64,000 bases of DNA from Escherichia coli (GCF_051903065.1 NZ_CP178438.1); one strand, 5' to 3'. Shown: positions 26,541-58,483, counted from the first letter of the stretch. Notes: generated from the sequence alone by a model not told the origin. Made by a program: numbers and translations.

Positions 26541-26546
26541 AAATTA

Positions 26547-41784: not shown

Positions 41785-42060
41785 GTGGCTTCTGTTTCTA
41801 TCAGCTGTCCCTCCTGTTCAGCTACTGACGGGGTGGTGCGTAACGGCAAAAGCACCGCCGGACATCAGCGCTATCTCTGCTCTCACTGCCGTAAAACATG
41901 GCAACTGCAGTTCACTTACACCGCTTCTCAACCCGGTACGCACCAGAAAATCATTGATATGGCCATGAATGGCGTTGGATGCCGGGCAACAGCCCGCATT
42001 ATGGGCGTTGGCCTCAACACGATTTTACGTCACTTAAAAAACTCAGGCCGCAGTCGGTAA
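41785..42060 (+). CDS. insA: IS1 InsA (transposition inhibitor / N-terminal part of transposase)
   Basis: 91 aa [43 protein letters not shown]... (GTG start). Confidence 0.93.
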
Positions 42061-42482
42061 CCTCGCGCATACAGCCGGGCAGTGACGTCATCGTCTGCGC
42101 GGAAATGGACGAACAGTGGGGCTATGTCGGGGCTAAATCGCGCCAGCGCTGGCTGTTTTACGCGTATGACAGGCTCCGGAAGACGGTTGTTGCGCACGTA
42201 TTCGGTGAACGCACTATGGCGACGCTGGGGCGTCTTATGAGCCTGCTGTCACCCTTTGACGTGGTGATATGGATGACGGATGGCTGGCCGCTGTATGAAT
42301 CCCGCCTGAAGGGAAAGCTGCACGTAATCAGCAAGCGATATACGCAGCGAATTGAGCGGCATAACCTGAATCTGAGGCAGCACCTGGCACGGCTGGGACG
42401 GAAGTCGCTGTCGTTCTCAAAATCGGTGGAGCTGCATGACAAAGTCATCGGGCATTATCTGAACATAAAACACTATCAATAA
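41979..42482 (+). CDS. insB: IS1 InsB frame (transposase InsAB' made by -1 frameshift at the A-run near 42036-42041)
   Basis: 167-aa -1 frame ORF overlapping the insA 3' end; slippery ttaaaaaac motif present. Confidence 0.9.
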
Positions 42483-42506: not shown

Positions 42507-42865
42507 ATGGCCACCGTTTATCTAACAGTGGCCATTTGATTTGAGGAAATGATGAAACATTATTCAGAAAATTAATTTAAAAAAACCATTCCTTAAGTCA
42601 AATATATATAAACGCCGAATAGCGATTAAATCCTTCTCAAAGAATGCACTGATAACATTGTGTTATTTTTATTGCCTCATTTTTCTCACTCACTTATAGT
42701 TGGTCCCTGCTGGCAGTAATTTAGTCATTTCAGAGATTTTTACTCTGATGTGCACTTACTGACTTATCTCACAAGTAATTTTTTCTCTAAATAAAGAATA
42801 GTGATGCCAGCAATTACAGTTAAAACTTGCTTTACTCGTAAAAACAATACTTTAATGGGGTTCTA

Positions 42866-43255
42866 ATGAGACATTACATGAAATGGTTTGCGGCTATTGC
42901 TGTTGTGGGTGCTTTAGCGGGTTGCGCGCGTACTGCGCCAATTGATCAGGTTCACTCAACCGTCAGCGCTGGTCATACCCAGGAACAAGTGAAAAAAGCG
43001 ATTCTGAAAGCTGGCGTTGAACGCAAATGGATTATGTCCGAAGCCGGACAAGGCATAATTAAAGCACGTCAACAGTCACGCGATCATTCAGCGGAAATAC
43101 GCATTAACTACACGGCATCCAGCTACGATATCAATTATGAAAATAGCCAGAACCTTCAAGCGTCAGGCGGACAAATTCATAAAAACTACAATCGCTGGGT
43201 CCGCAATCTCGACAAAGATATTCAACTGAATTTGTCAGCGGGCGCAGATTTATAA
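42866..43255 (+). CDS. small lipoprotein (first gene of the polyene-type cluster)
   Basis: 129 aa, signal peptide with lipobox MKWFAAIAVVGALAGC; alternative start ATG 42878. Confidence 0.75.
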   Translation: MRHYMKWFAAIAVVGALAGCARTAPIDQVHSTVSAGHTQEQVKKAILKAGVERKWIMSEAGQGIIKARQQSRDHSAEIRINYTASSYDINYENSQNLQASGGQIHKNYNRWVRNLDKDIQLNLSAGADL

Positions 43256-43314
43256 TTCCTCCTAAAGTCGGGCCGTTGCGGTCCGATAATAATTTAATTC
43301 CCTCTTAACAGGTT

Positions 43315-44382
43315 GTGCCCAACATGTACGAACAGGATTCTCTTAGCGCACTGGATGCGATTACCGAAGCTCAACGCATTGCCTTTGCCCCTATGCTTTT
43401 TCAAACAGCACTCTGCCTACGTAATGCGGGTGTACTTTCATATCTGGATCGGCAAGGCAAACATGGCGCAACGCTGGCTGATATCACCGAACATAGCCAT
43501 ATCAACGAATATGCTGCCAGCGTTCTGTTAGATATGGGCTTAAGCGGGCGAATTATTACCTGTAAAGAGGGAATTTATTACCTGGCGAAAATCGGTCATT
43601 ACCTCCTGCATGACACTATGACTCGCGTGAATATGGATTTCACCCAGGATGTCTGTTACCAGGGGCTCTTCTTCCTCGCCGATTCACTCAATGAAGGAAA
43701 ACCTTCCGGGTTAAAAGTATTTGGCGACTGGTCGACGATATATCCGGCACTTTCGCAATTACCAGACGCCGCTCGTGAAAGCTGGTTTGCGTTTGATCAT
43801 TACTATTCAGATGGCGCATTTAACGCCGCACTGCCTTATGTATTCGCCAACAACCCCACAACATTGTACGATGTAGGCGGCAATACGGGTAAGTGGGCTT
43901 TGCGTTGCTGCAAATACAATGAAAACATCGCCGTGACGTTATTAGATCTGCCACAACAAATCGTACTAGCGAAAGAAAATATCGCGAATGCAGGTTTTTC
44001 TGATCGCATAGATTTCCATGCGGTGGATATGCTAAGCGATGCCCCATTACCGGGCGAGGCTGATATCTGGTGGATGAGCCAATTTTTAGACTGTTTTTCA
44101 CCCGAACAAATAATTAGCATACTCAGCAAAATTGCCAGCGTAATGAAGCCTGGCGCAAAAGTTTGCATCATGGAGTTGTTCTGGGATGCGCAGCGGTTTG
44201 AAGCAGCATCGTTTAGCCTGAACGCGTCCTCACTTTATTTTACCTGCATGGCAAACGGTAACAGCCGTTTCTATAGTGCAGAGAAATTTTACGACTATCT
44301 GAATAAAGCAGGATTCCAGGTAGCAGAGCGCCACGATAATTTAGGCGTTGGGCATACACTTTTGATATGCCAAAAGAAATAA
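43315..44382 (+). CDS. class I SAM-dependent (O-)methyltransferase
   Basis: 355 aa; SAM-binding motif LYDVGGNTGKWAL; GTG start at 43315, alternative ATG at 43324. Confidence 0.8.
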   Translation: MPNMYEQDSLSALDAITEAQRIAFAPMLFQTALCLRNAGVLSYLDRQGKHGATLADITEHSHINEYAASVLLDMGLSGRIITCKEGIYYLAKIGHYLLHDTMTRVNMDFTQDVCYQGLFFLADSLNEGKPSGLKVFGDWSTIYPALSQLPDAARESWFAFDHYYSDGAFNAALPYVFANNPTTLYDVGGNTGKWALRCCKYNENIAVTLLDLPQQIVLAKENIANAGFSDRIDFHAVDMLSDAPLPGEADIWWMSQFLDCFSPEQIISILSKIASVMKPGAKVCIMELFWDAQRFEAASFSLNASSLYFTCMANGNSRFYSAEKFYDYLNKAGFQVAERHDNLGVGHTLLICQKK

Positions 44383-44422
44383 TCGTCACTTAATAATTTT
44401 GGTTTACCGCGGGCGCGCGTTG

Positions 44423-45145
44423 ATGAAATTTACATTAAATATTACCGACTGGCAGGCACTGGCGCCTGGACTTAGCGAAGCGCAGCAATGGCAAGCATGG
44501 TCGCGCCAGCCGTGGGCGATTGACCCTGCCGCGCCGTTGGCAAAATTAAGTGAACTGCCAATGATGACCGCCCGCCGCCTCAGTTCAGGCAGCAAACTGG
44601 CTGTTGAATGCGGTCTGGCAATGCTACGCCGCCATCAGCCAGACGCCGTTTTGTATACCAGTCGTCATGGCGAACTGGAGCGCAATTACCGCATTGTTCA
44701 TGCACTGGCAACCGAACAGGCGCTTTCTCCGACCGACTTCGCGCTCTCCGTACACAACTCTTCCGTGGGTAACCTGACCATTGCGGCCAAACAGCCGATC
44801 GTTTCGTCATCGCTTTCGGCTGGTCGCGACACTTTCCAGCAAGGTTTGTGTGAAGTGCTTAGCCTGTTACAAGCGGGATACCAGCGCGTGCTGATGGTCG
44901 ATTTTGACGGTTTCCTGCCCGAGTTTTATCACCCACAACTGCCATCAGAAATGCCGACCTGGCCGTACGCCGTCGCGCTGGTGATTGAAGCTGGCGATGA
45001 GTGGCAATGTGAAACGCAGTCAGCCATTGCGGGCAATGAAACAACACTGCCGCAAAGCATGTTGTTTTTACAGCACTATTTACAAAATGTAGACACATTT
45101 TCACTGCCTGGCGAGCGCGTGCAATGGCGCTGGAGCCACAGATGA
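44423..45145 (+). CDS. ketosynthase-like protein lacking the active-site Cys (chain-length-factor-like KS partner)
   Basis: ORF 44399..45145 (TTG in track); ATG at 44423 gives MKFTLNITDWQALAPG...; about 240 aa, thiolase-like N-terminal half without a C-x-S-S catalytic motif. Confidence 0.7.
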   Translation: MKFTLNITDWQALAPGLSEAQQWQAWSRQPWAIDPAAPLAKLSELPMMTARRLSSGSKLAVECGLAMLRRHQPDAVLYTSRHGELERNYRIVHALATEQALSPTDFALSVHNSSVGNLTIAAKQPIVSSSLSAGRDTFQQGLCEVLSLLQAGYQRVLMVDFDGFLPEFYHPQLPSEMPTWPYAVALVIEAGDEWQCETQSAIAGNETTLPQSMLFLQHYLQNVDTFSLPGERVQWRWSHR

Positions 45146-45963
45146 GTAAGCTGATGTCACGTCTGGAGTGGACCTGGCGACTGGTCATGACCGGGTTATG
45201 TTTTGCCCTGTTTGGTCTCGGCGGCCTGCTGCTTTCTGTCGTGTGGTTTAACATATTGTTAGTTTTGGTGTGGGATACTTCCCGCCGCCGTCGTTTGGCG
45301 CGTCGCAGCATTGCCGCCAGTTTTCGCCTGTTTTTAACTGTCGCGAAAGGGCTTGGCGTGCTGGATTATCGTATTGATGGCGCTGAAATTTTACGTCAGG
45401 AACGCGGTTGCCTCGTCGTAGCCAATCATCCCACGCTGATCGATTACGTGCTGCTGGCGTCAGTCATGCCAGAAACTGACTGCCTGGTGAAAAGCGCACT
45501 GTTAAAAAATCCTTTTCTTGGCGGCGTCGTGCGGGCGGCAGATTATTTAATCAACAGCGAAGCTGAAACCCTGTTACCCCGCTGCCAACAGCGACTGGCA
45601 CAGGGTGACACTATCCTGATTTTCCCCGAAGGCACACGAACGAAGCCCGGTGAAAAAATGACGCTGCAGCGCGGGGCGGCGAATATTGCCGTGCGCTGCG
45701 CCAGCGATTTACGCATCGTGACAATCGGCTGTAGCGAGCATCTGCTGGATAAACAAAGTAAATGGTATGACGTTCCACCTGACCGGCCGTTTTTTACGGT
45801 TGCAGTCCATGGTCGGGTTGAAATCAATAAATTTTACGATGCAACTTCACAAGAACCGGCGCTGGCAGCAAGGCAGTTAAACCGGCATCTTTTGCTTCAA
45901 TTACAACAAGGTTGTTTACCTCTCTCAGGAATAAATAATGCAAGCGCTTTATCTGGAAATTAA
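45142..45963 (+). CDS. PlsC-type (lysophospholipid) acyltransferase
   Basis: ORF 45124..45963; start at ATG 45142 forms an ATGA overlap with the upstream stop; motifs NHPTLIDYVLL (H-x4-D) and IFPEGTRT. Confidence 0.8.
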   Translation: MSKLMSRLEWTWRLVMTGLCFALFGLGGLLLSVVWFNILLVLVWDTSRRRRLARRSIAASFRLFLTVAKGLGVLDYRIDGAEILRQERGCLVVANHPTLIDYVLLASVMPETDCLVKSALLKNPFLGGVVRAADYLINSEAETLLPRCQQRLAQGDTILIFPEGTRTKPGEKMTLQRGAANIAVRCASDLRIVTIGCSEHLLDKQSKWYDVPPDRPFFTVAVHGRVEINKFYDATSQEPALAARQLNRHLLLQLQQGCLPLSGINNASALSGN

Positions 45964-46195
45964 AAACCTCATCATCAGCACCCTCAATCTGGACGAGTTG
46001 ACGCCTGATGATATCGATACCGACGCGCCGCTGTTTGGCGACGGTTTAGGGCTGGACTCTATCGATGCCCTGGAACTGGGACTGGCAGTAAAAAATGAGT
46101 ACGGCATCGTGCTCTCTGCGGAAAGCGAAGAGATGCGTCAGCACTTTTTCTCCGTCGCCACTCTGGCCTCTTTCATTGCTGCGCAACGTGCCTGA
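45938..46195 (+). CDS. acyl carrier protein 1
   Basis: 85 aa; phosphopantetheine-attachment motif GLGLDSIDALELG; SD agga 7 nt upstream. Confidence 0.88.
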   Translation: MQALYLEIKNLIISTLNLDELTPDDIDTDAPLFGDGLGLDSIDALELGLAVKNEYGIVLSAESEEMRQHFFSVATLASFIAAQRA

Positions 46196-46206
46196 GGAAA
46201 GCCATC

Positions 46207-46458
46207 ATGACAGAACAACAAACCGTCTATCAGGAAGTCTCAGCCCTGCTGGTTAAGCTGTTTGAAATCGATCCGCAGGACATCAAACCTGAAGCGCGCC
46301 TGTACGAAGATCTGGAACTGGACAGCATCGACGCCGTTGACATGATTGTGCACCTGCAAAAGAAAACCGGTAAGAAAATCAAGCCGGAAGAGTTTAAAGC
46401 AGTGCGTACAGTCCAGGATGTCGTCGAGGCTGTAGAACGCCTGCTACAAGAAGCCTGA
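46207..46458 (+). CDS. acyl carrier protein 2
   Basis: 83 aa; motif DLELDSIDAVDMI; SD gagga upstream. Confidence 0.88.
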   Translation: MTEQQTVYQEVSALLVKLFEIDPQDIKPEARLYEDLELDSIDAVDMIVHLQKKTGKKIKPEEFKAVRTVQDVVEAVERLLQEA

Positions 46459-46462
46459 TCTG

Positions 46463-47044
46463 ATGTCGGGCATTCGCTCGCTACCGATGATTAAGCTGCT
46501 GACTGGATTATTGCTGCTCGCCTGGCCGTTTGTGATTTGGTTTGGCTTAGCGCATAACGGCCTGCACTGGCTGTTACCGCTAATGGCGTTGCTGCTTTTG
46601 TTGCGTCTGCGCCAGACCCGTCGCCAGGCGGGGCCTTTACAAGCCGTCACGCAACTCGTCGCTGTCGTGGGCATCGCATTATGTGTCGCCAGCTTTATGT
46701 TGAAAACGCACCAGCTACTGCTGTTTTACCCGGTAGTGGTTAACGCGGTCATGCTGGCGGTTTTTGGCGGTTCGCTGTGGTCGGCAATGCCGATAGTTGA
46801 GCGGCTGGCGCGGTTGCAGGAGCCAGACCTCCCGGAAAAGGGCGTGCGCTATACCCGCCACGTCACGCAAATCTGGTGCGGCTTTTTCATCATTAACGGT
46901 GGAATTGCCCTCTTTACCGCGCTTTATGCCGATATGTCGTTATGGACCGCCTGGAACGGCATGATTGCTTATTTGTTGATGGGGACGTTAATGGCTGGTG
47001 AATGGCTGGTGCGCCGCCAGGTTATGAAAAGAGATCGCGCATGA
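46463..47044 (+). CDS. hypothetical integral membrane protein
   Basis: 193 aa, about 4-5 hydrophobic helices (LLTGLLLLAWPFVIWFGLAH...). Confidence 0.7.
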   Translation: MSGIRSLPMIKLLTGLLLLAWPFVIWFGLAHNGLHWLLPLMALLLLLRLRQTRRQAGPLQAVTQLVAVVGIALCVASFMLKTHQLLLFYPVVVNAVMLAVFGGSLWSAMPIVERLARLQEPDLPEKGVRYTRHVTQIWCGFFIINGGIALFTALYADMSLWTAWNGMIAYLLMGTLMAGEWLVRRQVMKRDRA

Positions 47045-48402
47045 AGCAGACCTTACCGCTTGCACGCTGGCTGACTGCGCCACGCCCTGATGACACACCC
47101 ATTGCGTGGCTGAACGAAAGTACCTGGACGCTGGGCGATTTGCGTCACGATGTCGCGCAACTTATCTGCCGCTTGCAGCAACAGCCGGGTGAACGCTGGG
47201 CGCTGTGCTTTGAGAACAGCTATCTGTTTATCGTTGCCCTGCTCGCCACGCTACACGCCGGAAAAACGCCGGTGCTTCCGGGGCATAACCGTGTTATCCA
47301 GCTTAACGAGCAACGTGAACTTTTTGATGGTGTGCTTAGCGACAGCGAACTTAACTGGCAAGGTTCATTGCTGTTGGTAGCAAGTTCCCCACAAGTCGCG
47401 ACACAATCCTTCACCTTTGCCGCTATAGCGCCAGAGGCTTATATCGAGCTGTTTACCTCCGGTTCCACGGGACAGCCGAAACGGGTGATTAAACCTGTTC
47501 ATTTGCTGGACCGTGAAGCAGAACTGCTGGCTGAACGATTAGGCGCACGTCTGGCGGATTGTCGTGTCATCGGTTCCGTATTGCCGCAGCATTTGTACGG
47601 CCTGACTTTTCGCGTTTTCCTGCCCATGGCGCTGGGATTACCCCTACATGCCGCCATGCTCTGGTATGTCGAACAGTTTGCCGCGTTGAGTCATCAGCAT
47701 CGCTATATCTTCATCAGCAGCCCGGCATTTTTGAAGCGTCTGGATACACAGCTTTCCCCACCGCCCGTTCAGGTGCTTCTCTCTGCTGGCGGTGAGCTAC
47801 CGTGGCAGGATGTACAACACACCGCGAGCTGGCTGCGCGTCTGGCCTGATGAAATCTACGGCAGCACGGAAACCGGCGTCATCGCCTGGCGCTACCGCGA
47901 ACAAGAGCAACGCCGCTGGCTACCCCTCCCAGGTATGCAGTTCCAGGCCGAAGGCGATGCCTTTCGCCTCTTTTCACCGCTGATAGCGGAAGATAACGGC
48001 CTGTTACTCGACGATATCTTACAGTTTAGCGAAGATGGTCAGTTCCATCTGATGGGGCGTCGTGGGCGCATCGTTAAGATTGAAGAAAAACGTATTTCAC
48101 TCCAGGAAGTAGAACAACGTCTACTGGCGCTGGACGGCATTCGCGAGGCGGCGGCAGTTCCCGTTACGCGCGGCGGGCGTCAGAGCATAGGCGTTTTGCT
48201 GGTGCTGGATGACGAAGCTCATCTGCAATGGCAGAACGGCGGCGGGCATAGCCAGGAAATGACCTGGCGGCGTTTACTGCGCCCGACGCTGGAGCCAGTT
48301 GCTATTCCGCGTTACTGGCGCGTTATTGATGAAATGCCAGTAAACAGTATGAACAAGCGTGTCTATGCGCAATTACAGGAGTTATTTCATGAAGCCCCAT
48401 GA
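47041..48402 (+). CDS. adenylate-forming enzyme (AMP-dependent synthetase/ligase; probable starter-acid:ACP ligase)
   Basis: ORF 47002..48402; start at ATG 47041 (ATGA overlap with upstream stop); AMP-binding motifs FTSGSTGQPKRV and YGSTETG. Confidence 0.82.
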   Translation: MKQTLPLARWLTAPRPDDTPIAWLNESTWTLGDLRHDVAQLICRLQQQPGERWALCFENSYLFIVALLATLHAGKTPVLPGHNRVIQLNEQRELFDGVLSDSELNWQGSLLLVASSPQVATQSFTFAAIAPEAYIELFTSGSTGQPKRVIKPVHLLDREAELLAERLGARLADCRVIGSVLPQHLYGLTFRVFLPMALGLPLHAAMLWYVEQFAALSHQHRYIFISSPAFLKRLDTQLSPPPVQVLLSAGGELPWQDVQHTASWLRVWPDEIYGSTETGVIAWRYREQEQRRWLPLPGMQFQAEGDAFRLFSPLIAEDNGLLLDDILQFSEDGQFHLMGRRGRIVKIEEKRISLQEVEQRLLALDGIREAAAVPVTRGGRQSIGVLLVLDDEAHLQWQNGGGHSQEMTWRRLLRPTLEPVAIPRYWRVIDEMPVNSMNKRVYAQLQELFHEAP

Positions 48403-48742
48403 AATCGAGCGCCATCAGGCACAAACGAATCACCTTGAAATTGTTCTGCATCTCAGGGCGGATCTGTTCTGGTTTCGCGGTCATTTTGCCGTGCAACCAT
48501 TACTCCCAGGAGTTGCGCAAATCGATTGGGCGATGAGCTACGCGCTCAATCTGCTCGCGCCTGGCTGGCGTTTTCACTCCATTCAGAACATAAAATTCCA
48601 GTCTCCGTTGCTGCCGGAAAACCGCGTCACGCTCGCGCTTAACTGGCAGGAAGAACGCCAGATTCTGAGCTTTAGCTATCAGCGTCACGACGGTGACGCC
48701 CGCCACACCGCCAGTAGCGGGAAGATACGCCTATGTCGGTAA
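48389..48742 (+). CDS. FabZ/FabA-like hotdog-fold 3-hydroxyacyl-ACP dehydratase
   Basis: ORF 48359..48742; start ATG 48389 with SD aggag 8 nt upstream; motif FRGHFAVQPLLPGVAQIDWAM resembles FabZ GHFP..P..PGVL..EA.AQ. Confidence 0.78.
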   Translation: MKPHEIERHQAQTNHLEIVLHLRADLFWFRGHFAVQPLLPGVAQIDWAMSYALNLLAPGWRFHSIQNIKFQSPLLPENRVTLALNWQEERQILSFSYQRHDGDARHTASSGKIRLCR

Positions 48743-50409
48743 ACTTTTCTCCCTGCGTGTTGATCCCCTGCTACAACCACGGCGCGATGATGCCGGGCGT
48801 GCTGGCGCGTCTTAAGCCATTTAATCTGCCCTGTATTGTGGTGGACGACGGCAGCGATGCCGCCACGCAACAGCAACTGGACAGTCTGCTTGCCGAACAG
48901 CCTGGCGTGACCTTAATCCGCCTGGCAGAAAACGCAGGCAAAGGCGCGGCAGTGATGCGTGGCTTACAGGCAGCGGCAGACGCAGGGTTCAGCCATGCGG
49001 TGCAGGTGGATGCTGACGGTCAACATGCGATTGAAGATATCCCCAAACTGCTGGCACTCGCTGAACAACACCCTGCGGCGCTGATCTCCGGCCAGCCAAT
49101 TTACGATGACTCCATCCCCCGCTCACGGCTTTACGGGCGCTGGGTCACCCACGTCTGGGTATGGATCGAAACGCTCTCCCTGCAACTGAAAGACAGCATG
49201 TGCGGCTTTCGCGTTTATCCGGTTGCGCCAACGCTGCAACTGGCAAAACACGCCACCATCGGCAAGCGGATGGATTTCGACACTGAAGTGATGGTGCGCC
49301 TCTACTGGCAGGGAAACACCAGCTATTTCGTGCCGACCCGCGTCACCTATCCACTGGACGGGCTTTCGCATTTTGATGCCCTGAAAGATAACGTCCGCAT
49401 CTCGCTCATGCACACGCGTCTGTTTTTCGGCATGTTGCCGCGTATTCCTTCACTACTGATGCGCCGCTCTTCCAGCCACTGGGCGCGGCAGAGTGAAGTG
49501 AAAGGATTATGGGGAATGCGCCTGATGCTGCTGGTCTGGCGTCTGCTGGGAAGAACGGCGTTTAGCGCGCTGCTTTACCCGGTGGTGGGCGTCTACTGGC
49601 TCACTGCTGCTCGTGCGCGCAAAGCGTCGCAAGACTGGCTCGCCCGTGTACGACAGCATCAACCACAGGCGGCAAAACTCAACAGCTATCAGCACTTTCT
49701 ACGTTTCGGTAATGCCATGCTCGACAAAATCGCCAGCTGGCGCGGCGAGCTACAACTGGGGCACGATGTGCTGTTTGCGCCAGGCGCAGAAGCGGCGCTT
49801 GACGTCAGCGATCCGCGCGGCAAATTGCTGCTGGCCTCGCATCTTGGCGATGTGGAAGTGTGCCGGGCGCTGGCAAAAATTCAGGGCTACAAAACCATTA
49901 ACGCGCTGGTGTTTAGCGAAAACGCCCAACGCTTTAAACAGATAATGCAGGAGATGGCTCCTCAGGCAGGTATTAACCTGATGCCGGTAACAGATATCGG
50001 CCCGGAAACCGCCATCCTGCTGAAAGAGAAGCTGGATAACGGCGAATGGGTGGCGATTGTCGGTGACCGCATCGCCGTCACCCCGCAACGCGGCGGCGAC
50101 TGGCGCGTCTGCTGGAGTCCGTTTATGGGCCAGCCTGCGCCCTTCCCACAGGGGCCGTTTATTCTCGCGTCTATTTTGCGCTGCCCGGTGAATCTGATTT
50201 TCGCCCTGCGCCAGCGCGGCAAGCTGCATATTCACTGCGAAACCTTTGCCGACCCGCTGCTGTTGCCGCGTGGCGAACGCCAACAGGCGCTGCAAAACGC
50301 TATCGACCACTACGCCGCGCGTCTGGAACATTACGCGCTCCAGTCGCCCCTCGACTGGTTTAATTTTTTCGATTTCTGGCAACTGCCGGAAATTCAGGAC
50401 AAGGAGTAA
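48733..50409 (+). CDS. two-domain protein: N-terminal GT2-family glycosyltransferase plus C-terminal domain of uncertain (possibly acyltransferase-like) function
   Basis: 558 aa; GT-A motifs VLIPCYNHG, VVDDGSDA, QVDADGQH in the first about 250 aa; C-terminal half not confidently assigned by eye. Confidence 0.75.
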   Translation: MSVNFSPCVLIPCYNHGAMMPGVLARLKPFNLPCIVVDDGSDAATQQQLDSLLAEQPGVTLIRLAENAGKGAAVMRGLQAAADAGFSHAVQVDADGQHAIEDIPKLLALAEQHPAALISGQPIYDDSIPRSRLYGRWVTHVWVWIETLSLQLKDSMCGFRVYPVAPTLQLAKHATIGKRMDFDTEVMVRLYWQGNTSYFVPTRVTYPLDGLSHFDALKDNVRISLMHTRLFFGMLPRIPSLLMRRSSSHWARQSEVKGLWGMRLMLLVWRLLGRTAFSALLYPVVGVYWLTAARARKASQDWLARVRQHQPQAAKLNSYQHFLRFGNAMLDKIASWRGELQLGHDVLFAPGAEAALDVSDPRGKLLLASHLGDVEVCRALAKIQGYKTINALVFSENAQRFKQIMQEMAPQAGINLMPVTDIGPETAILLKEKLDNGEWVAIVGDRIAVTPQRGGDWRVCWSPFMGQPAPFPQGPFILASILRCPVNLIFALRQRGKLHIHCETFADPLLLPRGERQQALQNAIDHYAARLEHYALQSPLDWFNFFDFWQLPEIQDKE

Positions 50410-50412
50410 AGG

Positions 50413-50835
50413 GTGCTTAACGATCCCCGATTTACCGCTGAAGTCGAGCTGACCATTCCCTTTCACGACGTCGATATGATGGGCGTGGCCTGGCACGGTA
50501 ACTATTTTCGCTACTTTGAAGTGGCCCGCGAGGCGCTGCTCAACCAGTTCAATTACGGCTATCGGCAGATGAAAGAGTCCGGTTATTTGTGGCCAGTGGT
50601 CGATGCGCGGGTGAAATATCGCCACGCTCTCACCTTTGAGCAACGCATCCGCGTGCGTGCGCATATCGAAGAGTTCGAAAACCGTCTGCGGATTGGCTAT
50701 CAGATTTTCGATGCCGAAACGGGCAAACGCGCCACCACCGGATACACCATTCAGGTCGCGGTCGACGAGCAAAGCCGCGAACTGTGCTTTGTCAGCCCCG
50801 ATATTCTGTTTGAACGCATGGGAGTCAAACCATGA
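50413..50835 (+). CDS. hotdog-fold acyl-(ACP/CoA) thioesterase (4HBT-like)
   Basis: 140 aa; GTG start 50413 with SD aaggag 6 nt upstream; MLNDPRFTAEVELTIPFHDVDMMGVAWHGNYFRYFE... typical 4HBT/YbgC-like N-terminus. Confidence 0.75.
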   Translation: MLNDPRFTAEVELTIPFHDVDMMGVAWHGNYFRYFEVAREALLNQFNYGYRQMKESGYLWPVVDARVKYRHALTFEQRIRVRAHIEEFENRLRIGYQIFDAETGKRATTGYTIQVAVDEQSRELCFVSPDILFERMGVKP

Positions 50836-51437
50836 AATTTTTACCGCTGCTGGCGCTGCTGATTAGCCCGTTTGTGAGCGCCCTGACCCTGGACGATCTT
50901 CAACAACGTTTTACCGAACAGCCGGTGATCCGCGCCCATTTCGATCAAACCCGGACGATTAAAGATCTGCCGCAGCCGCTGCGATCTCAGGGCCAGATGT
51001 TGATCGCCCGCGACCAGGGGTTATTGTGGGATCAAACCTCACCGTTCCCCATGCAACTATTACTGGACGATAAACGCATGGTGCAGGTGATCAACGGTCA
51101 GCCGCCGCAAATCATCACGGCAGAAAATAACCCGCAGATGTTCCAGTTTAACCACCTGCTGCGCGCGCTGTTCCAGGCCGATCGCAAAGTGCTGGAACAA
51201 AACTTCCGCGTCGAATTTGCCGACAAAGGCGAAGGCCGCTGGACGCTGCGCCTGATGCCGACCACCACGCCACTGGATAAAATTTTCAACACCATCGATC
51301 TCGCCGGGCAAACCTATCTGGAGAGCATTCAGCTTAATGATAAACAGGGCGATCGCACCGATATTGCTCTTACCCAACATCAACTGACACCAGCGCAACT
51401 GACCGATGACGAACGCCAACGTTTTGCCGCCCAGTAA
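50832..51437 (+). CDS. LolA-like outer-membrane lipoprotein carrier family protein
   Basis: 201 aa with signal peptide MKFLPLLALLISPFVSA; ATGA overlap with upstream gene. Confidence 0.72.
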   Translation: MKFLPLLALLISPFVSALTLDDLQQRFTEQPVIRAHFDQTRTIKDLPQPLRSQGQMLIARDQGLLWDQTSPFPMQLLLDDKRMVQVINGQPPQIITAENNPQMFQFNHLLRALFQADRKVLEQNFRVEFADKGEGRWTLRLMPTTTPLDKIFNTIDLAGQTYLESIQLNDKQGDRTDIALTQHQLTPAQLTDDERQRFAAQ

Positions 51438-53724
51438 ACGCCCCGCGCTGTTATGGGGGCTAGTCTGCCTGGTCATGGCGGCGGCGTTGCTGATCCTGCT
51501 GCCGCAATCACGGCTGAACAGTAGCGTGCTGGCTATGTTACCCAAACAGGCGATGGGCGATATTCCCCCAGCGCTGAATGACGGCTTTATGCAGCGTCTG
51601 GACCGCCAACTGGTGTGGCTGGTCAGCCCCGGTAAAGAGGCTAATCCCAGGGTCGCTCAGGAGTGGCTGACGCAGCTGCAAAAATCCGCTGCGCTTGGCG
51701 ACATTAAAGGGCCAATGGATGCCGCCAGCCAGCAGGCGTGGGGAGCGTTTTTCTGGCAGCACCGCAACGGCCTGATTGACCACGACACCCGCGCCCGCCT
51801 GCAAAACGGCGGCGAAGCGCAGGCGCAGTGGATCCTCTCCCAGCTTTATTCTGCATTCTCCGGGGTAAGCGGCAAGGAGCTGCAAAACGATCCGCTGATG
51901 TTAATGCGCGGCTCGCAGCTGGCGATGGCAAAAAATGGCCAGCGTTTGCGGCTGATGGACGGCTGGCTGGTGACGCAGGATCCCCAGGGCAACTACTGGT
52001 ATCTGCTGCACGGCGAACTGGCGGGATCGTCGTTTGATATGCAGCAAACCCACCAGCTCATCACGACCCTGAATACGCTGGAAAAGGATCTGAAAACGCG
52101 TTACCCACAGGCGCAGTTGCTCTCGCGCGGCACGGTATTTTACAGCGATTACGCCAGTCAACAGGCGAAGCAGGATATCTCAACCCTGGGCGTGGCAACG
52201 CTGCTGGGGGTGATATTGCTGATTGTGGCGGTGTTCCGCTCTTTGCGCCCGTTGCTGCTTTGCGTGATTTCCATCGGCATCGGCGCGCTGGCGGGAACGG
52301 TCGCCACTTTATTGATTTTCGGTGAATTACACCTGATGACGCTGGTGATGAGCATGAGCGTTATCGGCATTTCCGCTGACTACACGCTCTATTATCTCAC
52401 CGAGCGGATGGTTCACGGCAACGACGTTTCGCCGTGGCAAAGCCTGGCGAAAGTACGCAATGCCTTGCTACTGGCGCTGCTCACCACCGTGGCGGCGTAT
52501 CTGATTATGATGCTCGCCCCCTTCCCCGGCATTCGCCAGATGGCGATTTTTGCCGCCGTCGGGTTGAGCGCCTCCTGTCTGACCGTCCTGTTCTGGCATC
52601 CGTGGCTGTGCCGTGGCCTGCCGGTGCGTCCGGTTCCGGCGATGGCGCTGATGCTACGCTGGCTGGCAGCGTGGCGGCGTAATAAAAAACTGTCGCTGGG
52701 TCTGCCCGTCGCGCTGGCGCTGTTTTCGCTGGCGGGGATGTCAATGCTACGCGTCGATGACGATATCTCGCAGTTACAGGCGCTACCGCAGCATATTCTG
52801 GCGCAGGAAAAAGCCATTACCGCCCTGACCAGGCAGAGCGTCGATCAAAAATGGTTTGTGGTTTACGGCGATTCGCCACAGCAAACATTGCGGCGACTGG
52901 AGAAATATACCGCCTCACTTGAGTATGCGAAAAAAGAGGGGCTTATCAGCAACTACCGCACCATTCCGCTGAACTCCCTTGCGCGGCAGGAGGAAGATTT
53001 ACAACTGCTGAAAACGGCGGCCCCGACAGTAACAAAAGCGCTGCAAAATGCCGGGCTGACGGCAGTGAACCCGGATCTCAACGCCATGCCAGTGAACGTT
53101 GATGAATGGCTGGCAAGCCCCGCCAGTGAAGGCTGGCGTCTGCTGTGGCTGACGCTGGAAAACGGCGAAAGCGGCGTACTGGTGCCGGTTGAAGGGGTTA
53201 AAAGTAGCGCGTTGATGCAGGAAATCGCCAGCTATTACCCTTGCGGCATTGCCTGGGTTGATCGCAAAAGCACCTTTGATGAATTGTTCGCACTTTACCG
53301 TTATGTCTTAACCGGCTTGTTGCTGGTGGCGCTGGCGGTGATTGCCTGCGGCGCAGTGGCCCGTCTCGGCTGGCGCAAAGGGCTTATCAGCCTGGTGCCT
53401 TCGGTGCTTTCGCTGGGCTGCGGTCTGGCGGTGCTGGCGATGAGCGGGCAGGCGGTGAATATCTTTTCGCTTCTGGCGCTGGTGCTGGTGCTTGGCATCG
53501 GCATCAATTACACGCTGTTTTTCAGTAATCCGCGCGGCACACCGTTAACTTCGCTACTGGCGATCACACTGGCAATGCTCACCACCTTGCTGACGCTGGG
53601 AATGTTGGTATTCAGCGCCACCCAGGCCATCAGCAGTTTTGGCATTGTGCTGGTGAGCGGTATTTTCACCGCCTTCCTGCTTTCGCCGCTGGCTATGCCC
53701 GATAAAAAGAGAACAAAAAAATGA
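51406..53724 (+). CDS. MMPL/RND-superfamily exporter
   Basis: 772 aa, two clusters of TM helices separated by soluble loops; 32-nt overlap with upstream gene. Confidence 0.8.
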   Translation: MTNANVLPPSKRPALLWGLVCLVMAAALLILLPQSRLNSSVLAMLPKQAMGDIPPALNDGFMQRLDRQLVWLVSPGKEANPRVAQEWLTQLQKSAALGDIKGPMDAASQQAWGAFFWQHRNGLIDHDTRARLQNGGEAQAQWILSQLYSAFSGVSGKELQNDPLMLMRGSQLAMAKNGQRLRLMDGWLVTQDPQGNYWYLLHGELAGSSFDMQQTHQLITTLNTLEKDLKTRYPQAQLLSRGTVFYSDYASQQAKQDISTLGVATLLGVILLIVAVFRSLRPLLLCVISIGIGALAGTVATLLIFGELHLMTLVMSMSVIGISADYTLYYLTERMVHGNDVSPWQSLAKVRNALLLALLTTVAAYLIMMLAPFPGIRQMAIFAAVGLSASCLTVLFWHPWLCRGLPVRPVPAMALMLRWLAAWRRNKKLSLGLPVALALFSLAGMSMLRVDDDISQLQALPQHILAQEKAITALTRQSVDQKWFVVYGDSPQQTLRRLEKYTASLEYAKKEGLISNYRTIPLNSLARQEEDLQLLKTAAPTVTKALQNAGLTAVNPDLNAMPVNVDEWLASPASEGWRLLWLTLENGESGVLVPVEGVKSSALMQEIASYYPCGIAWVDRKSTFDELFALYRYVLTGLLLVALAVIACGAVARLGWRKGLISLVPSVLSLGCGLAVLAMSGQAVNIFSLLALVLVLGIGINYTLFFSNPRGTPLTSLLAITLAMLTTLLTLGMLVFSATQAISSFGIVLVSGIFTAFLLSPLAMPDKKRTKK

Positions 53725-54305
53725 TCAAATCCACATTCTGGCGAGCGTTCGCCCTGACCGCTACGCTTATCCTCACCGGCTGTAGCCACTCGCAACCAGA
53801 ACAGGAAGGCCGCCCGCAGGCGTGGCTGCAACCTGGCACGCGCATCACGCTGCCGGCACCAGGGATTTCACCCGCAGTCAATTCGCAGCAACTGTTGACC
53901 GGCAGCTTCAACGGCAAAACCCAGTCGCTGCTAGTAATGCTTAACGCCGACGACCAGAAAATCACCCTTGCCGGGCTGTCGTCGGTCGGCATTCGCCTGT
54001 TTCTGGTGACCTACGATGCAAAAGGGCTACGCGCCGAGCAATCCATCGTCGTCCCGCAGTTGCCGCCCGCAAGTCAGGTGCTGGCTGACGTAATGCTCAG
54101 CCACTGGCCGATTAGCGCCTGGCAACCGCAACTTCCCGCAGGATGGACACTTCGCGACAACGGTGACAAACGCGAGCTGCGTAACGCCAGCGGCAAACTG
54201 GTCACGGAAATCACCTATCTGAATCGCCAGGGAAAACGCGTGCCAATCAGCATTGAGCAGCATGTCTTTAAATACCACATCACCATTCAATACTTAGGTG
54301 ACTGA
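53721..54305 (+). CDS. lipoprotein of unknown function (DUF3261-like)
   Basis: 194 aa, lipobox LILTGC after signal peptide; ATGA overlap with MMPL gene. Confidence 0.72.
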   Translation: MIKSTFWRAFALTATLILTGCSHSQPEQEGRPQAWLQPGTRITLPAPGISPAVNSQQLLTGSFNGKTQSLLVMLNADDQKITLAGLSSVGIRLFLVTYDAKGLRAEQSIVVPQLPPASQVLADVMLSHWPISAWQPQLPAGWTLRDNGDKRELRNASGKLVTEITYLNRQGKRVPISIEQHVFKYHITIQYLGD

Positions 54306-54306
54306 T

Positions 54307-55476
54307 ATGATTTATATTTCCGCCGTCGGCATGATCAACGCCCTGGGAAATAACCTTGACGAAATCGCAGCCAACCTGGCTCGCGGTGTCGCCCCCGGAA
54401 TGCGCCCACGCGCAGGCTGGTTGCAGGGGCATCCGCAGGCGGTCCTGGCTGGCGTGGATGGCGAGCTTCCGCTTATCCCGGAAAAATTCGCTGCGCATCG
54501 CTCGCGCAACAATCAGATCCTGCTGGCGGCGCTGGCGCAGCTCCAGCCGCAGGTTGATGACACTATAGCGAAATATGGTCGCGAGCGCATCGCGATTGTA
54601 CTTGGCACCAGCACCTCCGGCCTGCATGAAGGCGACACGCACGTTAACCTGCGCACCCACGGGCAGCCGAGCACCACATGGCATTACGCGCAACAGGAAC
54701 TCGGCGATCCGTCGCGTTTTCTCAGCCACTGGCTGGCGCTCGACGGCCCGGCTTATACCCTTTCAACCGCCTGCTCCTCCAGCGCCAGAGCGATGATCAG
54801 CGGGCGCAGGCTTATCGAGGCGGGGCTGGTCGATGCCGCCATTGTGGGTGGCGCAGACACCCTGAGCCGGATGCCGATTAACGGTTTTCACAGCCTCGAA
54901 TCGCTGTCGCCAACCTTATGTCAGCCGTTCGGTCGTGACCGCGCAGGTATCACCATTGGTGAAGGGGCGGGGCTAATGCTGCTGACCCGCGAACCGCAGC
55001 CCATCGCATTGCTGGGCGTTGGTGAATCGAGCGACGCTTACCATATTTCAGCTCCGCATCCGCAGGGCGAAGGAGCGATCCGCGCTATTAATCAGGCGCT
55101 GACCGATGCGCAGCTTACGCCGGATGACGTCGGCTATATCAACCTGCACGGCACCGCCACACAGCTCAACGACCAGATTGAATCAATGGTGGTTAACGCC
55201 CTGTTTGGCGAACGCGTACCGTGCAGCTCCACCAAACATTTGACCGGACACACGCTGGGCGCAGCGGGCATTACCGAGGCGGCAATTAGTATGTTGATTT
55301 TACAGCGTGATTTACCGCTGCCCGCTCAGGACTTCAGCCTGTCGCCGCGCGATCCCACGCTGCCACCGTGTGGCATTATCGAAAAACCGCAGCCGCTGGC
55401 ACGTCCGGTGATCCTGTCCAATTCCTTCGCCTTTGGCGGCAATAACGCCAGCATTCTGCTCGGGAGGGTTTCGTGA
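54307..55476 (+). CDS. beta-ketoacyl-ACP synthase (catalytically competent KS)
   Basis: ORF 54298..55476 (GTG); ATG 54307 has SD taggtga 7 nt upstream; catalytic triad motifs STACSSS, HGTAT, GHTLGAAG. Confidence 0.85.
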   Translation: MIYISAVGMINALGNNLDEIAANLARGVAPGMRPRAGWLQGHPQAVLAGVDGELPLIPEKFAAHRSRNNQILLAALAQLQPQVDDTIAKYGRERIAIVLGTSTSGLHEGDTHVNLRTHGQPSTTWHYAQQELGDPSRFLSHWLALDGPAYTLSTACSSSARAMISGRRLIEAGLVDAAIVGGADTLSRMPINGFHSLESLSPTLCQPFGRDRAGITIGEGAGLMLLTREPQPIALLGVGESSDAYHISAPHPQGEGAIRAINQALTDAQLTPDDVGYINLHGTATQLNDQIESMVVNALFGERVPCSSTKHLTGHTLGAAGITEAAISMLILQRDLPLPAQDFSLSPRDPTLPPCGIIEKPQPLARPVILSNSFAFGGNNASILLGRVS

Positions 55477-55937
55477 GCCACTATTTATCCCCCGGTGCTT
55501 ATCTGCCCCACGACGCGCCCATGTTACTGCTGGAAGACGTGGTGAGCGTCAGCGATGACAGCGCGGTGTGCCGCGTGACGGTTTCGCCCAGTGGCGTACT
55601 GGCACCGTTTCTCGACCCGGACGGCAATCTCCCCGGCTGGTTTACCCTTGAACTGATGGCGCAAACCGTCGGCGTCTGGTCTGGCTGGCATCGCCACCAG
55701 CAGGGCAAAAACAGTATTGAGTTAGGGATGATACTGGGCGCGCGTGAATTGCTTTGCACCACTGGCATTCTGCCCGCAGGCCAGACGCTGACCATTACCG
55801 TCAAACTGCTGATGCAAGACGATCGCTTCGGCAGTTTTGAGTGCAGCATCAACGACGGCGAGGCAACGGGCCGCATTAACACCTTCCAGCCGACCGCGGA
55901 AGAACTTACCACCCTGTTTCAACAAGGAGCGTCCTGA
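55473..55937 (+). CDS. FabA-like hotdog-fold dehydratase
   Basis: 154 aa; GTG start overlapping upstream stop (GTGA) with SD ggagg; hotdog-length protein with no other recognisable catalytic motifs. Confidence 0.7.
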   Translation: MSHYLSPGAYLPHDAPMLLLEDVVSVSDDSAVCRVTVSPSGVLAPFLDPDGNLPGWFTLELMAQTVGVWSGWHRHQQGKNSIELGMILGARELLCTTGILPAGQTLTITVKLLMQDDRFGSFECSINDGEATGRINTFQPTAEELTTLFQQGAS

Positions 55938-56668
55938 TGAGTCGTTCAGTTCTGGTTACTGGTGCCAGCAAAGGCATTGGTCGCGCCATCGCCTGCCAAC
56001 TGGCGGCAGACGGCTTTAACATTGGCGTTCACTATCACCGTGACGCCACAGGCGCTCAGGAAACGCTGAATGCCATTGTCGCCAATGGGGGTAACGGGCG
56101 TTTGCTCAGTTTCGACGTCGCAAACCGCGAACAGTGTCGGGAAGTGCTGGAGCATGAGATCGCGCAACACGGTGCCTGGTACGGCGTGGTCAGTAACGCC
56201 GGGATCGCCCGCGATGCCGCTTTTCCGGCTTTAAGCGATGACGACTGGGATGCGGTGATCCACACCAACCTCGACAGTTTCTACAACGTCATTCAGCCGT
56301 GCATTATGCCGATGATCGGCGCACGCCAGGGTGGGCGCATCATCACGCTATCCTCGGTTTCCGGCGTAATGGGCAATCGCGGCCAGGTGAATTACAGCGC
56401 TGCCAAAGCCGGAATTATCGGCGCAACAAAAGCGCTGGCTATCGAACTCGCGAAGCGCAAAATCACCGTCAACTGCATCGCGCCGGGGCTTATTGATACC
56501 GGGATGATCGAAATGGAAGAGAGCGCTCTGAAAGAGGCAATGTCGATGATCCCCATGAAACGTATGGGCCAGGCGGAAGAAGTTGCCGGGCTTGCCAGTT
56601 ATTTAATGTCTGATATTGCGGGTTACGTCACCCGCCAAGTTATTTCCATCAACGGAGGGATGTTATGA
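55937..56668 (+). CDS. 3-oxoacyl-ACP reductase (SDR, FabG-like)
   Basis: 243 aa; VLVTGASKGIGRAIA cofactor motif, catalytic NYSAAKAG (YxxxK). Confidence 0.88.
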   Translation: MSRSVLVTGASKGIGRAIACQLAADGFNIGVHYHRDATGAQETLNAIVANGGNGRLLSFDVANREQCREVLEHEIAQHGAWYGVVSNAGIARDAAFPALSDDDWDAVIHTNLDSFYNVIQPCIMPMIGARQGGRIITLSSVSGVMGNRGQVNYSAAKAGIIGATKALAIELAKRKITVNCIAPGLIDTGMIEMEESALKEAMSMIPMKRMGQAEEVAGLASYLMSDIAGYVTRQVISINGGML

Positions 56669-57894
56669 CACGTCGCGTAGTGATTACAGGAATGGGCGGC
56701 GTGACTGCCTTTGGTGAAAACTGGCAGGACGTTTCTGCACGCTTACTGGCGTATGAAAATGCGGTGCGCAAAATGCCGGAGTGGCAGGTCTACGACGGGC
56801 TGCACACCCTGCTTGGCGCGCCTGTTGATGATTTCACGCTACCGGAGCACTACACCCGCAAGCGTATCCGTGCGATGGGCCGCGTGTCGCAAATGTCGAC
56901 CCGTGCCAGCGAGCTGGCGTTAGAGCAGGCAGGGTTGATTGGCGATCCGATATTAACCAGCGGCGAAACGGGCATTGCGTACGGTTCATCGACCGGCAGT
57001 ACCGGCCCGGTAAGCGAGTTCGCCACCATGCTGACGGAAAAGCACACCAATAACATCACTGGCACCACCTATGTGCAGATGATGCCGCACACCACCGCCG
57101 TTAATACTGGCCTCTTTTTCGGCCTGCGCGGGCGGGTGATCCCAACCTCCAGCGCCTGTACTTCCGGCAGCCAGGCAATCGGTTATGCGTGGGAAGCCAT
57201 TCGCCACGGTTATCAAACGGTGATGGTTGCTGGTGGTGCCGAAGAGTTATGTCCTTCAGAAGCAGCGGTATTTGATACGCTTTTCGCCACCAGCCAGCAC
57301 AATGATGCGCCGAAAACCACACCTTCACCGTTCGATGAAAACCGCGACGGGCTGGTGATTGGTGAAGGCGCAGGTACGCTCATTCTCGAAGAACTGGAAC
57401 ACGCCAAAGCGCGCGGCGCGACCATTTACGGTGAAATCGTCGGCTTTGCGACGAACTGCGACGCGGCACATATTACCCAGCCGCAGCGCGAAACCATGCA
57501 GTATTGTATGGAGCAATCGCTGAAAATCGCCGGGTTAAGCGCACAAGATATCGGCTATATTTCAGCGCATGGTACGGCGACCGATCGCGGTGATATGGCA
57601 GAAAGTCTGGCGACAGCAACCATTTACGGTGATAATGTGCCGCTCTCCTCGCTGAAAAGTTATTTTGGTCATACGCTTGGTGCCTGTGGCGCGCTCGAAG
57701 CCTGGATGAGTCTGCAAATGATGCGCGAAGGTTGGTTTGCGCCTACGCTAAACCTGAATAAACCAGACCCGAATTGTGGCGCGCTGGATTACATCATGCA
57801 TGAAGCCCGCAAGGTTGATTGTGAGTTTTTACAGAGTAACAACTTTGCCTTTGGCGGCATTAATACATCCATCATCATTAAACGTTGGCCCTGA
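56665..57894 (+). CDS. beta-ketoacyl-ACP synthase II-like (FabF/FabB family)
   Basis: 409 aa; SSACTSGS, SAHGTATDRGD, GHTLGACG motifs; ATGA overlap with reductase gene. Confidence 0.88.
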   Translation: MTRRVVITGMGGVTAFGENWQDVSARLLAYENAVRKMPEWQVYDGLHTLLGAPVDDFTLPEHYTRKRIRAMGRVSQMSTRASELALEQAGLIGDPILTSGETGIAYGSSTGSTGPVSEFATMLTEKHTNNITGTTYVQMMPHTTAVNTGLFFGLRGRVIPTSSACTSGSQAIGYAWEAIRHGYQTVMVAGGAEELCPSEAAVFDTLFATSQHNDAPKTTPSPFDENRDGLVIGEGAGTLILEELEHAKARGATIYGEIVGFATNCDAAHITQPQRETMQYCMEQSLKIAGLSAQDIGYISAHGTATDRGDMAESLATATIYGDNVPLSSLKSYFGHTLGACGALEAWMSLQMMREGWFAPTLNLNKPDPNCGALDYIMHEARKVDCEFLQSNNFAFGGINTSIIIKRWP

Positions 57895-57895: not shown

Positions 57896-58483
57896 ATGTA
57901 TCGGATAGTTCTGGGGAAAGTTTCGACCTTAAGCGCAGCTCCACTGCCACCGGGTTTACGCGAGCAAGCACCGCAAGGTCCACGACGCGAACGCTGGCTG
58001 GCGGGGCGTGCATTGCTTTCGCACACGCTTTCCCCGCTACCGGAGATCATCTATGGCGAACAAGGCAAACCTGCATTTGCGCCGGAAACGCCGCTATGGT
58101 TCAACTTAAGCCATAGCGGTGACGATATCGCCCTGCTGTTGAGTGATGAAGGCGAAGTCGGCTGCGATATCGAAGTGATTCGCCCGCGCGCCAACTGGCG
58201 CTGGCTGGCGAACGCCGTGTTCAGCCTCGGGGAACACGCTGAAATGGACGCCGTGCATCCTGATCAGCAACTGGAAATGTTCTGGCGCATCTGGACGCGC
58301 AAAGAAGCCATCGTTAAACAGCGTGGCGGCAGCGCCTGGCAAATCGTCAGCGTAGACAGCACCTATCACTCCTCGCTGTCAGTCAGCCATTGTCAGCTAG
58401 AAAATTTAAGCCTTGCGATCTGCACCCCCACCCCCTTTACGCTCACCGCCGACAGTGTGCAATGGATCGATTCAGTTAACTGA
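57896..58483 (+). CDS. acpT: holo-ACP synthase-type 4'-phosphopantetheinyl transferase AcpT
   Basis: ORF 57776..58483; 195-aa form from MYRIVLGKVSTLSAAPLPPGLREQ... begins 1 nt after the KS stop; PPTase core (FNLSHSGD..., WTRKEAIVK). Confidence 0.9.
   Translation: MYRIVLGKVSTLSAAPLPPGLREQAPQGPRRERWLAGRALLSHTLSPLPEIIYGEQGKPAFAPETPLWFNLSHSGDDIALLLSDEGEVGCDIEVIRPRANWRWLANAVFSLGEHAEMDAVHPDQQLEMFWRIWTRKEAIVKQRGGSAWQIVSVDSTYHSSLSVSHCQLENLSLAICTPTPFTLTADSVQWIDSVN

Follow-up and report, generated by a model that had tools for sequence, protein, structure and literature searches.

The apeLMN genes of an Escherichia coli aryl-polyene cluster as a candidate lipid route to the outer membrane

The way in which a non-protein lipid gets to the outer membrane is an active question, on which three genes of a bacterial pigment cluster bear. 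The window—the whole stretch of 64,000 nucleotides of Escherichia coli DNA (GCF_051903065.1, NZ_CP178438.1) that was analysed—had been predicted to hold, at 50832–54305, a module of a LolA-like carrier, an MMPL-type exporter, and a lipoprotein. Three co-oriented open reading frames of the plus strand fill exactly this interval: apeL (50832..51437, 201 aa) for a LolA-family carrier that is predicted to be secreted, apeM (51406..53724, 772 aa) for an RND/MMPL-type inner-membrane transporter, and apeN (53721..54305, 194 aa) for a DUF3261 protein with the features of an outer-membrane lipoprotein and a predicted LolB-like fold. The claimed overlaps of ATGA or longer can likewise be read from the sequence: ATGA at 50832–50835 is common to the stop of apeK and the start of apeL, the overlap between apeL and apeM is 32 nt long (51406–51437), and ATGA at 53721–53724 is common to the stop of apeM and the start of apeN. 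The upstream neighbor apeK (50413..50835, plus strand) encodes a hotdog thioesterase (4HBT_2, E 1.1e-16). Downstream, apeN overlaps the next ketosynthase (KS) gene by 8 nt with a GTG start at 54298, whereas the RefSeq start, ATG at 54307, leaves a gap of 1 nt. The RefSeq annotation of a 100% identical E. coli chromosome lists the same three genes with starts equal to those given here, under the names "LolA family protein" (apeL), "MMPL family transporter" (apeM), and "DUF3261 domain-containing protein" (apeN).

The cluster in which the module was said to be embedded is an aryl-polyene (APE) cluster, apeA–apeR, which by Pfam matches and RefSeq annotation extends over 42878..57894 on the plus strand and encloses apeLMN. 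Pfam matches comprise a methyltransferase, a CLF (Ketoacyl-synt_2), an acyltransferase, two ACPs, an AMP-ligase, a GT2, a KS, a KR, and a second KS, together with two dehydratase-type proteins (ApeI-like, E 1e-39; ApeP-like, E 6.9e-41). This gives the type II PKS/FAS-like core of an APE system—KS, CLF, two ACPs, KR, the ApeI/ApeP dehydratases, and an aryl-activating AMP-ligase. The first cluster gene, apeA (42878..43255, plus strand), encodes a small lipoprotein with the lipobox LAGC (N-terminus MKWFAAIAVVGALAGC; RefSeq "lipoprotein"). The gene apeG (46463..47044, plus strand) encodes a polytopic membrane protein with several hydrophobic segments, named "COG4648 family protein" in RefSeq and free of matches in Pfam or NCBIfam. 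Directly adjoining the cluster, acpT (57896..58483, plus strand; Pfam ACPS, E 2.4e-11; RefSeq AcpT) encodes a phosphopantetheinyl transferase and is followed by nikA–E; the title of De Lay & Cronan (2006) ties AcpT to substrates in O157:H7. The cluster site, between yhhT/IS1 and acpT-nikA, is that of O157:H7, and the region is 98.1% identical to O157:H7 EDL933. A scan of the cluster for promoters and terminators gave no signal distinguishable from shuffled sequences.

As the transport genes of the aryl-polyene pigment cluster of E. coli, apeL, apeM, and apeN have already been described; the window adds one more copy of a known module and no new component. About 15% of the complete E. coli genomes carry this module. 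In CFT073, where the cluster has been studied genetically and aryl-polyene pigment production was shown, the corresponding genes c1192/c1191/c1190 are alike in identity, order, and overlaps, and Johnston et al. (2021, PMC8253772) assigned their products as a LolA-like chaperone, an RND transporter, and a LolB-like protein of the DUF3261 type. For the CFT073-type (uropathogen) cluster, the proteins compared here are those of clone D i2: ApeL, ApeM, and ApeN are 98.5, 96.4, and 97.9% identical to that copy, which lies in a pathogenicity island in contrast to the yhhT/IS1–acpT-nikA site of the window. In total, 14 of the 18 cluster proteins show 94–100% amino acid identity to the clone D i2 cluster. 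ApeA, ApeG, ApeH, and ApeI reach only 65–82% between these two E. coli cluster types, with ApeA being the least conserved protein (65%); the apeA/G/H/I genes are mosaic between E. coli lineages.

A chance arrangement of open reading frames can be rejected, because the gene order G-J-K-L-M-N-O is kept in all 79 further species-level loci whose flanks were long enough, with conserved junctions. The scan for related loci was built on a 16-sequence alignment, and its best 80 loci are nearly all labelled Enterobacterales. Among the 79, K and L overlap by 4 nt in 76, L and M by 14–32 nt in 77, and M and N by 4 nt in 58. The same order appears in a 40%-identical metagenomic contig, and in five of six contigs with 25–40% ApeN identity the gene immediately before ApeN encodes an ApeM homologue; such distant contigs are mostly too short to reach apeL. 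Overlapping junctions conserved to this extent, together with the strict synteny, are compatible with co-translation of the proteins.

ApeL exceeds the Pfam cut-offs for LolA (PF03548; 43.5 bits, cut-off 23.6, E 3.7e-11) and for LolA_3 (PF19574; 41.6 bits, cut-off 23, E 1.1e-10). Its 58.8 bits against the NCBIfam model lolA (TIGR00547) stay below the equivalog cut-off of 112; hence, ApeL is not a LolA orthologue but a LolA paralogue, distinct from the housekeeping LolA itself. The nearest solved relative is PDB 8t5j, a "LolA family protein" (E 7e-22), for which the literature search found no describing paper. Read by eye, the sole hydrophobic segment of ApeL is N-terminal and forms a Sec signal with predicted cleavage after VSA17 (MKFLPLLALLISPFVSA, next residue L); no Cys stands at this site, and there is no lipobox. 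ApeL is therefore predicted to be a soluble secreted periplasmic protein.

ApeM shows RND topology, with 12 predicted transmembrane helices and large loops after TM1 and TM7. Crude Kyte–Doolittle hydropathy places TM1 at 11–38, TM2–6 at 256–398, TM7 at 429–450, and TM8–12 at 626–765, and the periplasmic loops at 39–255 (about 217 aa) and 451–625 (about 175 aa). The Pfam MMPL match (PF03176; 33.2 bits, cut-off 20.5) covers residues 252–395 only. The NCBIfam matches to HAE3, HpnN, and BstA models are weak and all below cut-off: ApeM scores 48.1 bits against the HpnN model TIGR03480 (cut-off 751.85), and is hence no HpnN orthologue by this measure, and 20.1 bits against NF052374 (cut-off 1100). 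Among solved structures, HpnN (PDB 5khn, 6wu0) is the best—though very distant—relative; ApeM is about 100 aa shorter, and its match to 5khn (E 7.9e-7, 31 bits) aligns over TM2–6 and places Asp325 on an HpnN Asp. The TM4 pair D325-Y326 is invariant in all 80 homologues covering the site. In TM10, N701-Y702 is kept, with Asn in place of Asp (Asp occurs in two distant homologues only), which counts against the export route discussed below. In the literature, where the family is called APPE, ApeG was proposed as a fourth transport component (PMC8253772). If the conserved TM4 Asp-Tyr serves as a proton drive, ApeM would not need ApeG or the like as a further source of energy.

Could ApeM instead be a tripartite efflux pump of the drug type, through which the pigment or other compounds leave the cell? 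Weak matches to CmeB and to models of multidrug RND permeases point this way. AcrB-type pumps, however, have longer periplasmic loops than the about 217 and 175 aa of ApeM, the best ApeM matches are the HpnN/HAE3 lipid transporters, and the RefSeq annotation of the cluster contains neither a membrane-fusion adaptor nor an outer-membrane channel gene. The APE pigment, moreover, is cell-bound (PMC8253772; bioRxiv 10.1101/2020.12.19.423268). On these grounds we have rejected the efflux pump, to which we concede hardly any likelihood.

ApeN matches DUF3261 (E 4.8e-39) and bears the lipobox L-T-G-C at residues 18–21, with Cys21 as the lipobox Cys and Ser at position +2. Its homologues were taken from a 50%-cluster library, as a search for close homologues gave only Enterobacteriaceae proteins of >80% identity; the Cys is kept in 87 of 89, and in these 87 the +2 residue is never Asp. 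By the sorting rule established for Enterobacteria, which reads the +2 residue, ApeN is predicted to carry an outer-membrane-type sorting signal. A single-sequence AF2 model was discarded for its pLDDT of 59.9; in the alignment-based model used instead, the fold is of the LolB type and LolB is the best structural match. A further, weak fold match is LprG (3mh8, E 0.047). In E. coli LolB, a hydrophobic residue, Leu68, is exposed on a protruding loop; a putative equivalent of this loop in ApeN is the loop 87–91 between two strands, in which position 89 is L, W, V, or M in 56 of 89 homologues. At the sequence level, DUF3261 is the only Pfam match at E<=10 and LolB is not among them, the 89-sequence profile retrieved neither LolB nor anything relevant from the PDB, and a single-sequence search of the PDB returned nothing relevant. 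In its modelled fold, ApeN is LolB-like; by sequence, it is not a member of the LolB family.

Together, these features outline a route to the outer membrane. The APE chain would be built on ACPs and attached by ApeD and ApeJ to a glycerolipid or glycolipid anchor at the inner membrane. ApeM, as an RND transporter of HpnN/MmpL type driven by the proton-motive force, would extract this APE-lipid from the inner membrane and hand it to ApeL, the presumed soluble LolA-fold carrier of the periplasm. ApeL would deliver it to the LolB-fold lipoprotein ApeN anchored in the outer membrane, which would finally insert it there. We put the probability of this whole route from ApeM over ApeL to ApeN at roughly 70%; herein we infer the cargo, the direction of transfer, both hand-overs (ApeM to ApeL and ApeL to ApeN), and the energy source. 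The original prediction of a pathway for a hydrophobic product parallel to Lol/Mla is supported, because the carrier has its signal and LolA domain, the transporter its RND topology and TM4 Asp, and the lipoprotein its lipobox and LolB-like fold. All its sequence-level expectations held; the parallel is to Lol, and the Mla part falls away. Matching export models have been proposed for CFT073 (Johnston et al. 2021, PMC8253772) and for Xenorhabdus (Grammbitter et al. 2020, bioRxiv 10.1101/2020.12.19.423268), and direct evidence of transport was found for no organism in the searchable literature.

As in the Lol pathway (LolCDE–LolA–LolB), a periplasmic LolA-family carrier is paired with an outer-membrane lipoprotein receptor of apparent LolB fold. 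The inner-membrane part, by contrast, is an RND transporter in place of the ABC transporter LolCDE, and the presumed cargo is a glycolipid, whereas Lol carries protein. Whether ApeLMN are a genuine relay of the Lol type is roughly an even call; a proton-driven RND protein would then stand in for the ATP-driven LolCDE, a polyketide glycolipid would be the cargo, and a DUF3261 protein of LolB fold would be the receptor. The idea of a Lol-type relay is already in print; what is added here are the placing of ApeN with LolB in the structural comparison, the conserved outer-membrane-type lipobox of ApeN, and the conserved TM4 Asp-Tyr of ApeM. Once proven, a relay that runs from an RND transporter over a LolA-type to a LolB-type protein would be a further lipid route alongside Lol, Lpt, and Mla. 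Counted against the route are that ApeN lacks a detectable sequence relation to LolB and that the scores of ApeL and ApeM do not reach the NCBIfam cut-offs for LolA, LolA2, and HpnN.

The cargo is probably an APE-glycolipid and not the free pigment. LolA and LolB folds are, however, known carriers of lipoproteins, and the first cluster gene encodes one: ApeL and ApeN might carry ApeA, possibly APE-lipidated, as a private Lol branch, while ApeM by itself would flip or export the lipid. Johnston et al. raised ApeA as cargo (PMC8253772), and De Smet et al. leave a lipoprotein cargo open for flexirubin loci (PMC11885536). Against this stand the full wild-type pigmentation of a CFT073 apeA deletion (PMC8253772), the Xenorhabdus product, which is a free glycolipid without a protein part (bioRxiv 10.1101/2020.12.19.423268), and the low conservation of ApeA across the two types of cluster in E. 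coli. We consider ApeA an unlikely cargo.

Deletion of apeM in E. coli removes nearly all pigment and renders APE metabolites undetectable, with no mislocalisation (PMC8253772). This loss, instead of an accumulation in the inner membrane, counts against the export route. It would fit a role of ApeLMN in assembling the biosynthetic machinery at the membrane or in keeping it stable—as a scaffold, a chaperone of late steps, or a sink for the product—and so would the position of apeLMN in the middle of the biosynthetic operon, with its overlapping junctions. A loss of product is equally expected, however, from feedback or degradation once export is blocked, and a secreted ApeL and a lipid-anchored ApeN outside the cytoplasm would be set apart from the ACP-bound chemistry. 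The deletion of the LolA-like ORF10 in Lysobacter, which leaves wild-type pigment and the protection against UV and H2O2, argues against an assembly role and counts against the export route as well. We regard an assembly role as quite improbable. For apeL and apeN, clean deletions were not obtained, and polar effects may account for their phenotypes (PMC8253772).

The export route by ApeM, ApeL, and ApeN has parallels in other systems. HpnN, the hopanoid RND transporter, carries a hydrophobic lipid in the direction of the outer membrane and is not known to have dedicated LolA- or LolB-like partners. In mycobacteria, MmpL7/LppX and LprG combine an RND transporter with a lipoprotein of LolA/LolB fold to export a polyketide lipid; we know of no soluble carrier in these MmpL systems, which differ from ApeLMN in their envelope and show no sequence relation. 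An equal role has been proposed for LolA2/LolB2 of Flavobacterium johnsoniae, a LolA-like and LolB-like pair in a flexirubin locus, that is, of an aryl-polyene-type pigment (PMC11885536). These belong to a different phylum, and ApeL stays under the cut-off of the NCBIfam flexirubin model LolA2_flexi (54.9 vs 125 bits, E 7.4e-15). Throughout Bacteroidota, LolA2/LolB2 genes always lie within flexirubin loci (De Smet et al. 2025, PMC11885536). [quoted passage not shown] In xanthomonadin and arcuflavin clusters, a LolA-like gene adjoining an exporter-like gene is conserved (PMC3949708), and xanthomonadin has been reported in the outer membrane (PMC3949708; bioRxiv 10.1101/2020.12.19.423268).

From ~42.9 kb to 58.5 kb, the ORFs form an extended array of co-oriented genes with little space between them, and the three-gene module at 50832–54305 within it is confirmed. 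As originally predicted, these genes are contiguous and overlap by ATGA or longer: the ORFs of apeL (50832–51437, 201 aa), apeM (51406–53724, 772 aa), and apeN (53721–54305, 194 aa) match the predicted coordinates exactly, and the junction sequences agree. As read from the sequence, the stop of the thioesterase gene apeK and the start of apeL have a common ATGA (50832–50835), apeL and apeM overlap by 32 nt, and apeM and apeN again have a common ATGA (53721–53724). For the downstream ketosynthase (KS) gene, an 8-nt overlap with apeN would require a start at GTG 54298; RefSeq places the start at ATG 54307. The RefSeq starts of the three genes agree with ours, under the names LolA family protein (apeL), MMPL family transporter (apeM), and DUF3261 domain-containing protein (apeN). 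Promoter and terminator scans within the cluster gave no difference from shuffled sequence.

The module is housed in the 18-gene aryl-polyene (APE) cluster, flanked by yhhT/IS1A and acpT-nikABCDE. It begins with a lipoprotein, a methyltransferase, a chain-length factor, an acyltransferase, two ACPs, and a COG4648 membrane protein, continues with an AMP-ligase, an ApeI-type dehydratase, a GT2/acyltransferase, and the thioesterase—followed by apeL, apeM, and apeN—and ends with a KS, an ApeP-type dehydratase, a KR, and a second KS. Pfam supports every part (ApeI-like, E 1e-39; ApeP-like, E 6.9e-41), and the APE cluster of O157:H7 EDL933 is 98.1% identical to the window copy. The identity of the three genes as apeL, apeM, and apeN is near certain. 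At the left cluster edge, between yhhT and apeA, lies an IS1A with a programmed-frameshift transposase (41785–42482).

In ApeL, the only hydrophobic segment is N-terminal and leads into VSA|L, and there is no cysteine; hence, the protein is expected to be secreted and soluble. Its Pfam scores for LolA and LolA_3 exceed the cut-offs; its NCBIfam scores for housekeeping LolA and flexirubin LolA2 stay under theirs. Its nearest solved relative is PDB 8t5j (E 7e-22), deposited as a LolA-family protein and grouped with 9coz and 9cwl as the closest PDB matches. ApeM lies above the Pfam MMPL cut-off, and its hydropathy profile is that of an RND protein, with TM1, a ~217-aa loop, TM2–6, TM7, a ~175-aa loop, and TM8–12. 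Among solved structures, its best relative is the hopanoid transporter HpnN (E 7.9e-7), with whose Asp the TM4 pair Asp325-Tyr326 aligns—a pair kept in 80/80 homologues examined. TM10 carries Asn701-Tyr702, with Asp instead in two distant homologues. By analogy to HpnN and MmpL3, these features suggest that transport by ApeM may be driven by protons.

The three genes are already known as routine members of a described system. For CFT073, Johnston et al. [quoted passage not shown] Grammbitter et al. 2020 (bioRxiv 10.1101/2020.12.19.423268) likewise proposed this route, with ApeM as its "APPE family" RND transporter, and solved the Xenorhabdus product as an APE-bearing GalNAc-phosphoglycerol lipid. 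The predicted carriage of a hydrophobic product from the inner to the outer membrane is supported and equals this published model. Of the proposed parallel to Lol/Mla, the Lol half holds and the Mla half does not; as a second correction, what is carried is probably a glycolipid and not free pigment. In related systems, the LolA2/LolB2 pair, whose function was left for testing, is always located in flexirubin loci (De Smet et al. 2025, PMC11885536), and xanthomonadin-type clusters conserve a LolA-like gene adjoining the exporter (PMC3949708). Deletion of apeM removes nearly all pigment, and clean deletions of apeL and apeN were not obtained (Johnston et al. 2021, PMC8253772). In Lysobacter, according to the literature, the LolA-like gene is needed neither for pigment nor for UV/H2O2 protection, and our literature search found no paper demonstrating transport by these proteins. 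In view of these limits to the functional evidence, we put the proposed ApeLMN transport mechanism at roughly 70%, below the gene identities.

When one genome was scanned for each species, 219 ApeN relatives came up; the best 80 of them—nearly all labelled Enterobacterales—were taken. Among these, the order G-J-K-L-M-N-O (apeG to apeO) is present in all 79 loci with enough flanking sequence; the 4-nt K/L overlap recurs in 76/79, an L/M overlap of 14–32 nt in 77/79, and the 4-nt M/N overlap in 58/79. This conservation argues for apeM starting at ATG 51406. The gene order is also identical on a metagenomic contig whose ApeN is 40% identical, and in five of six contigs at 25–40% ApeN identity the gene immediately upstream of ApeN encodes an ApeM homologue. 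In the sixth (L089, a distant cluster, 3079–5775; 27% ApeN identity), no RND gene precedes the DUF3261 gene; this gene follows a divergent gene and is the first of a separate unit that also includes KS and ApeP. Hence, the module can be split.

Within E. coli, 825 of 5426 complete genomes carry the 4-kb region—with 100% identity to E. coli chromosomes and 95–99% in 822 further records; in this search it was on no plasmid. The APE copy of clone D i2 (uropathogen-type), used as a proxy for the genetically studied CFT073 cluster, lies in a pathogenicity island at a different chromosomal place. Decayed hemagglutinin, enterotoxin, and IS66 genes border this site (NC_017651.1, locus 1–30319), which has no adjacent acpT. 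Sequence comparison shows mosaicism of the cluster among E. coli lineages: most proteins are 94–100% identical to the clone D i2 type, against 65% for ApeA, 82% for ApeG, 66% for ApeH, and 72% for ApeI. Compared with the clone D i2/Nissle type, DNA identity falls to 62–67% across 46865–48664 (3′ apeG, apeH, apeI), and to 62–70% for this segment and 42700–43564 (apeA, 5′ apeB) together; the remaining cluster DNA is 93–99.7% identical. apeL, apeM, and apeN belong to the conserved backbone outside the swapped segments (ApeL 98.5%, ApeM 96.4%, and ApeN 97.9% identical to clone D i2). Judged by their apeH segment, complete genomes divide into 569 records with ≥90% identity and 256 with 60–80%; these two classes might make different pigments, since the swapped cassette contains the starter-activating ligase.

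Elsewhere in the window, a DprA-like gene overlaps a RecQ-family helicase gene between yhgN and gntU (2509–5807, minus strand), which looks like a small accessory insertion, and an AtaT/AtaR toxin–antitoxin pair lies between panM and livJ (26013–26813).
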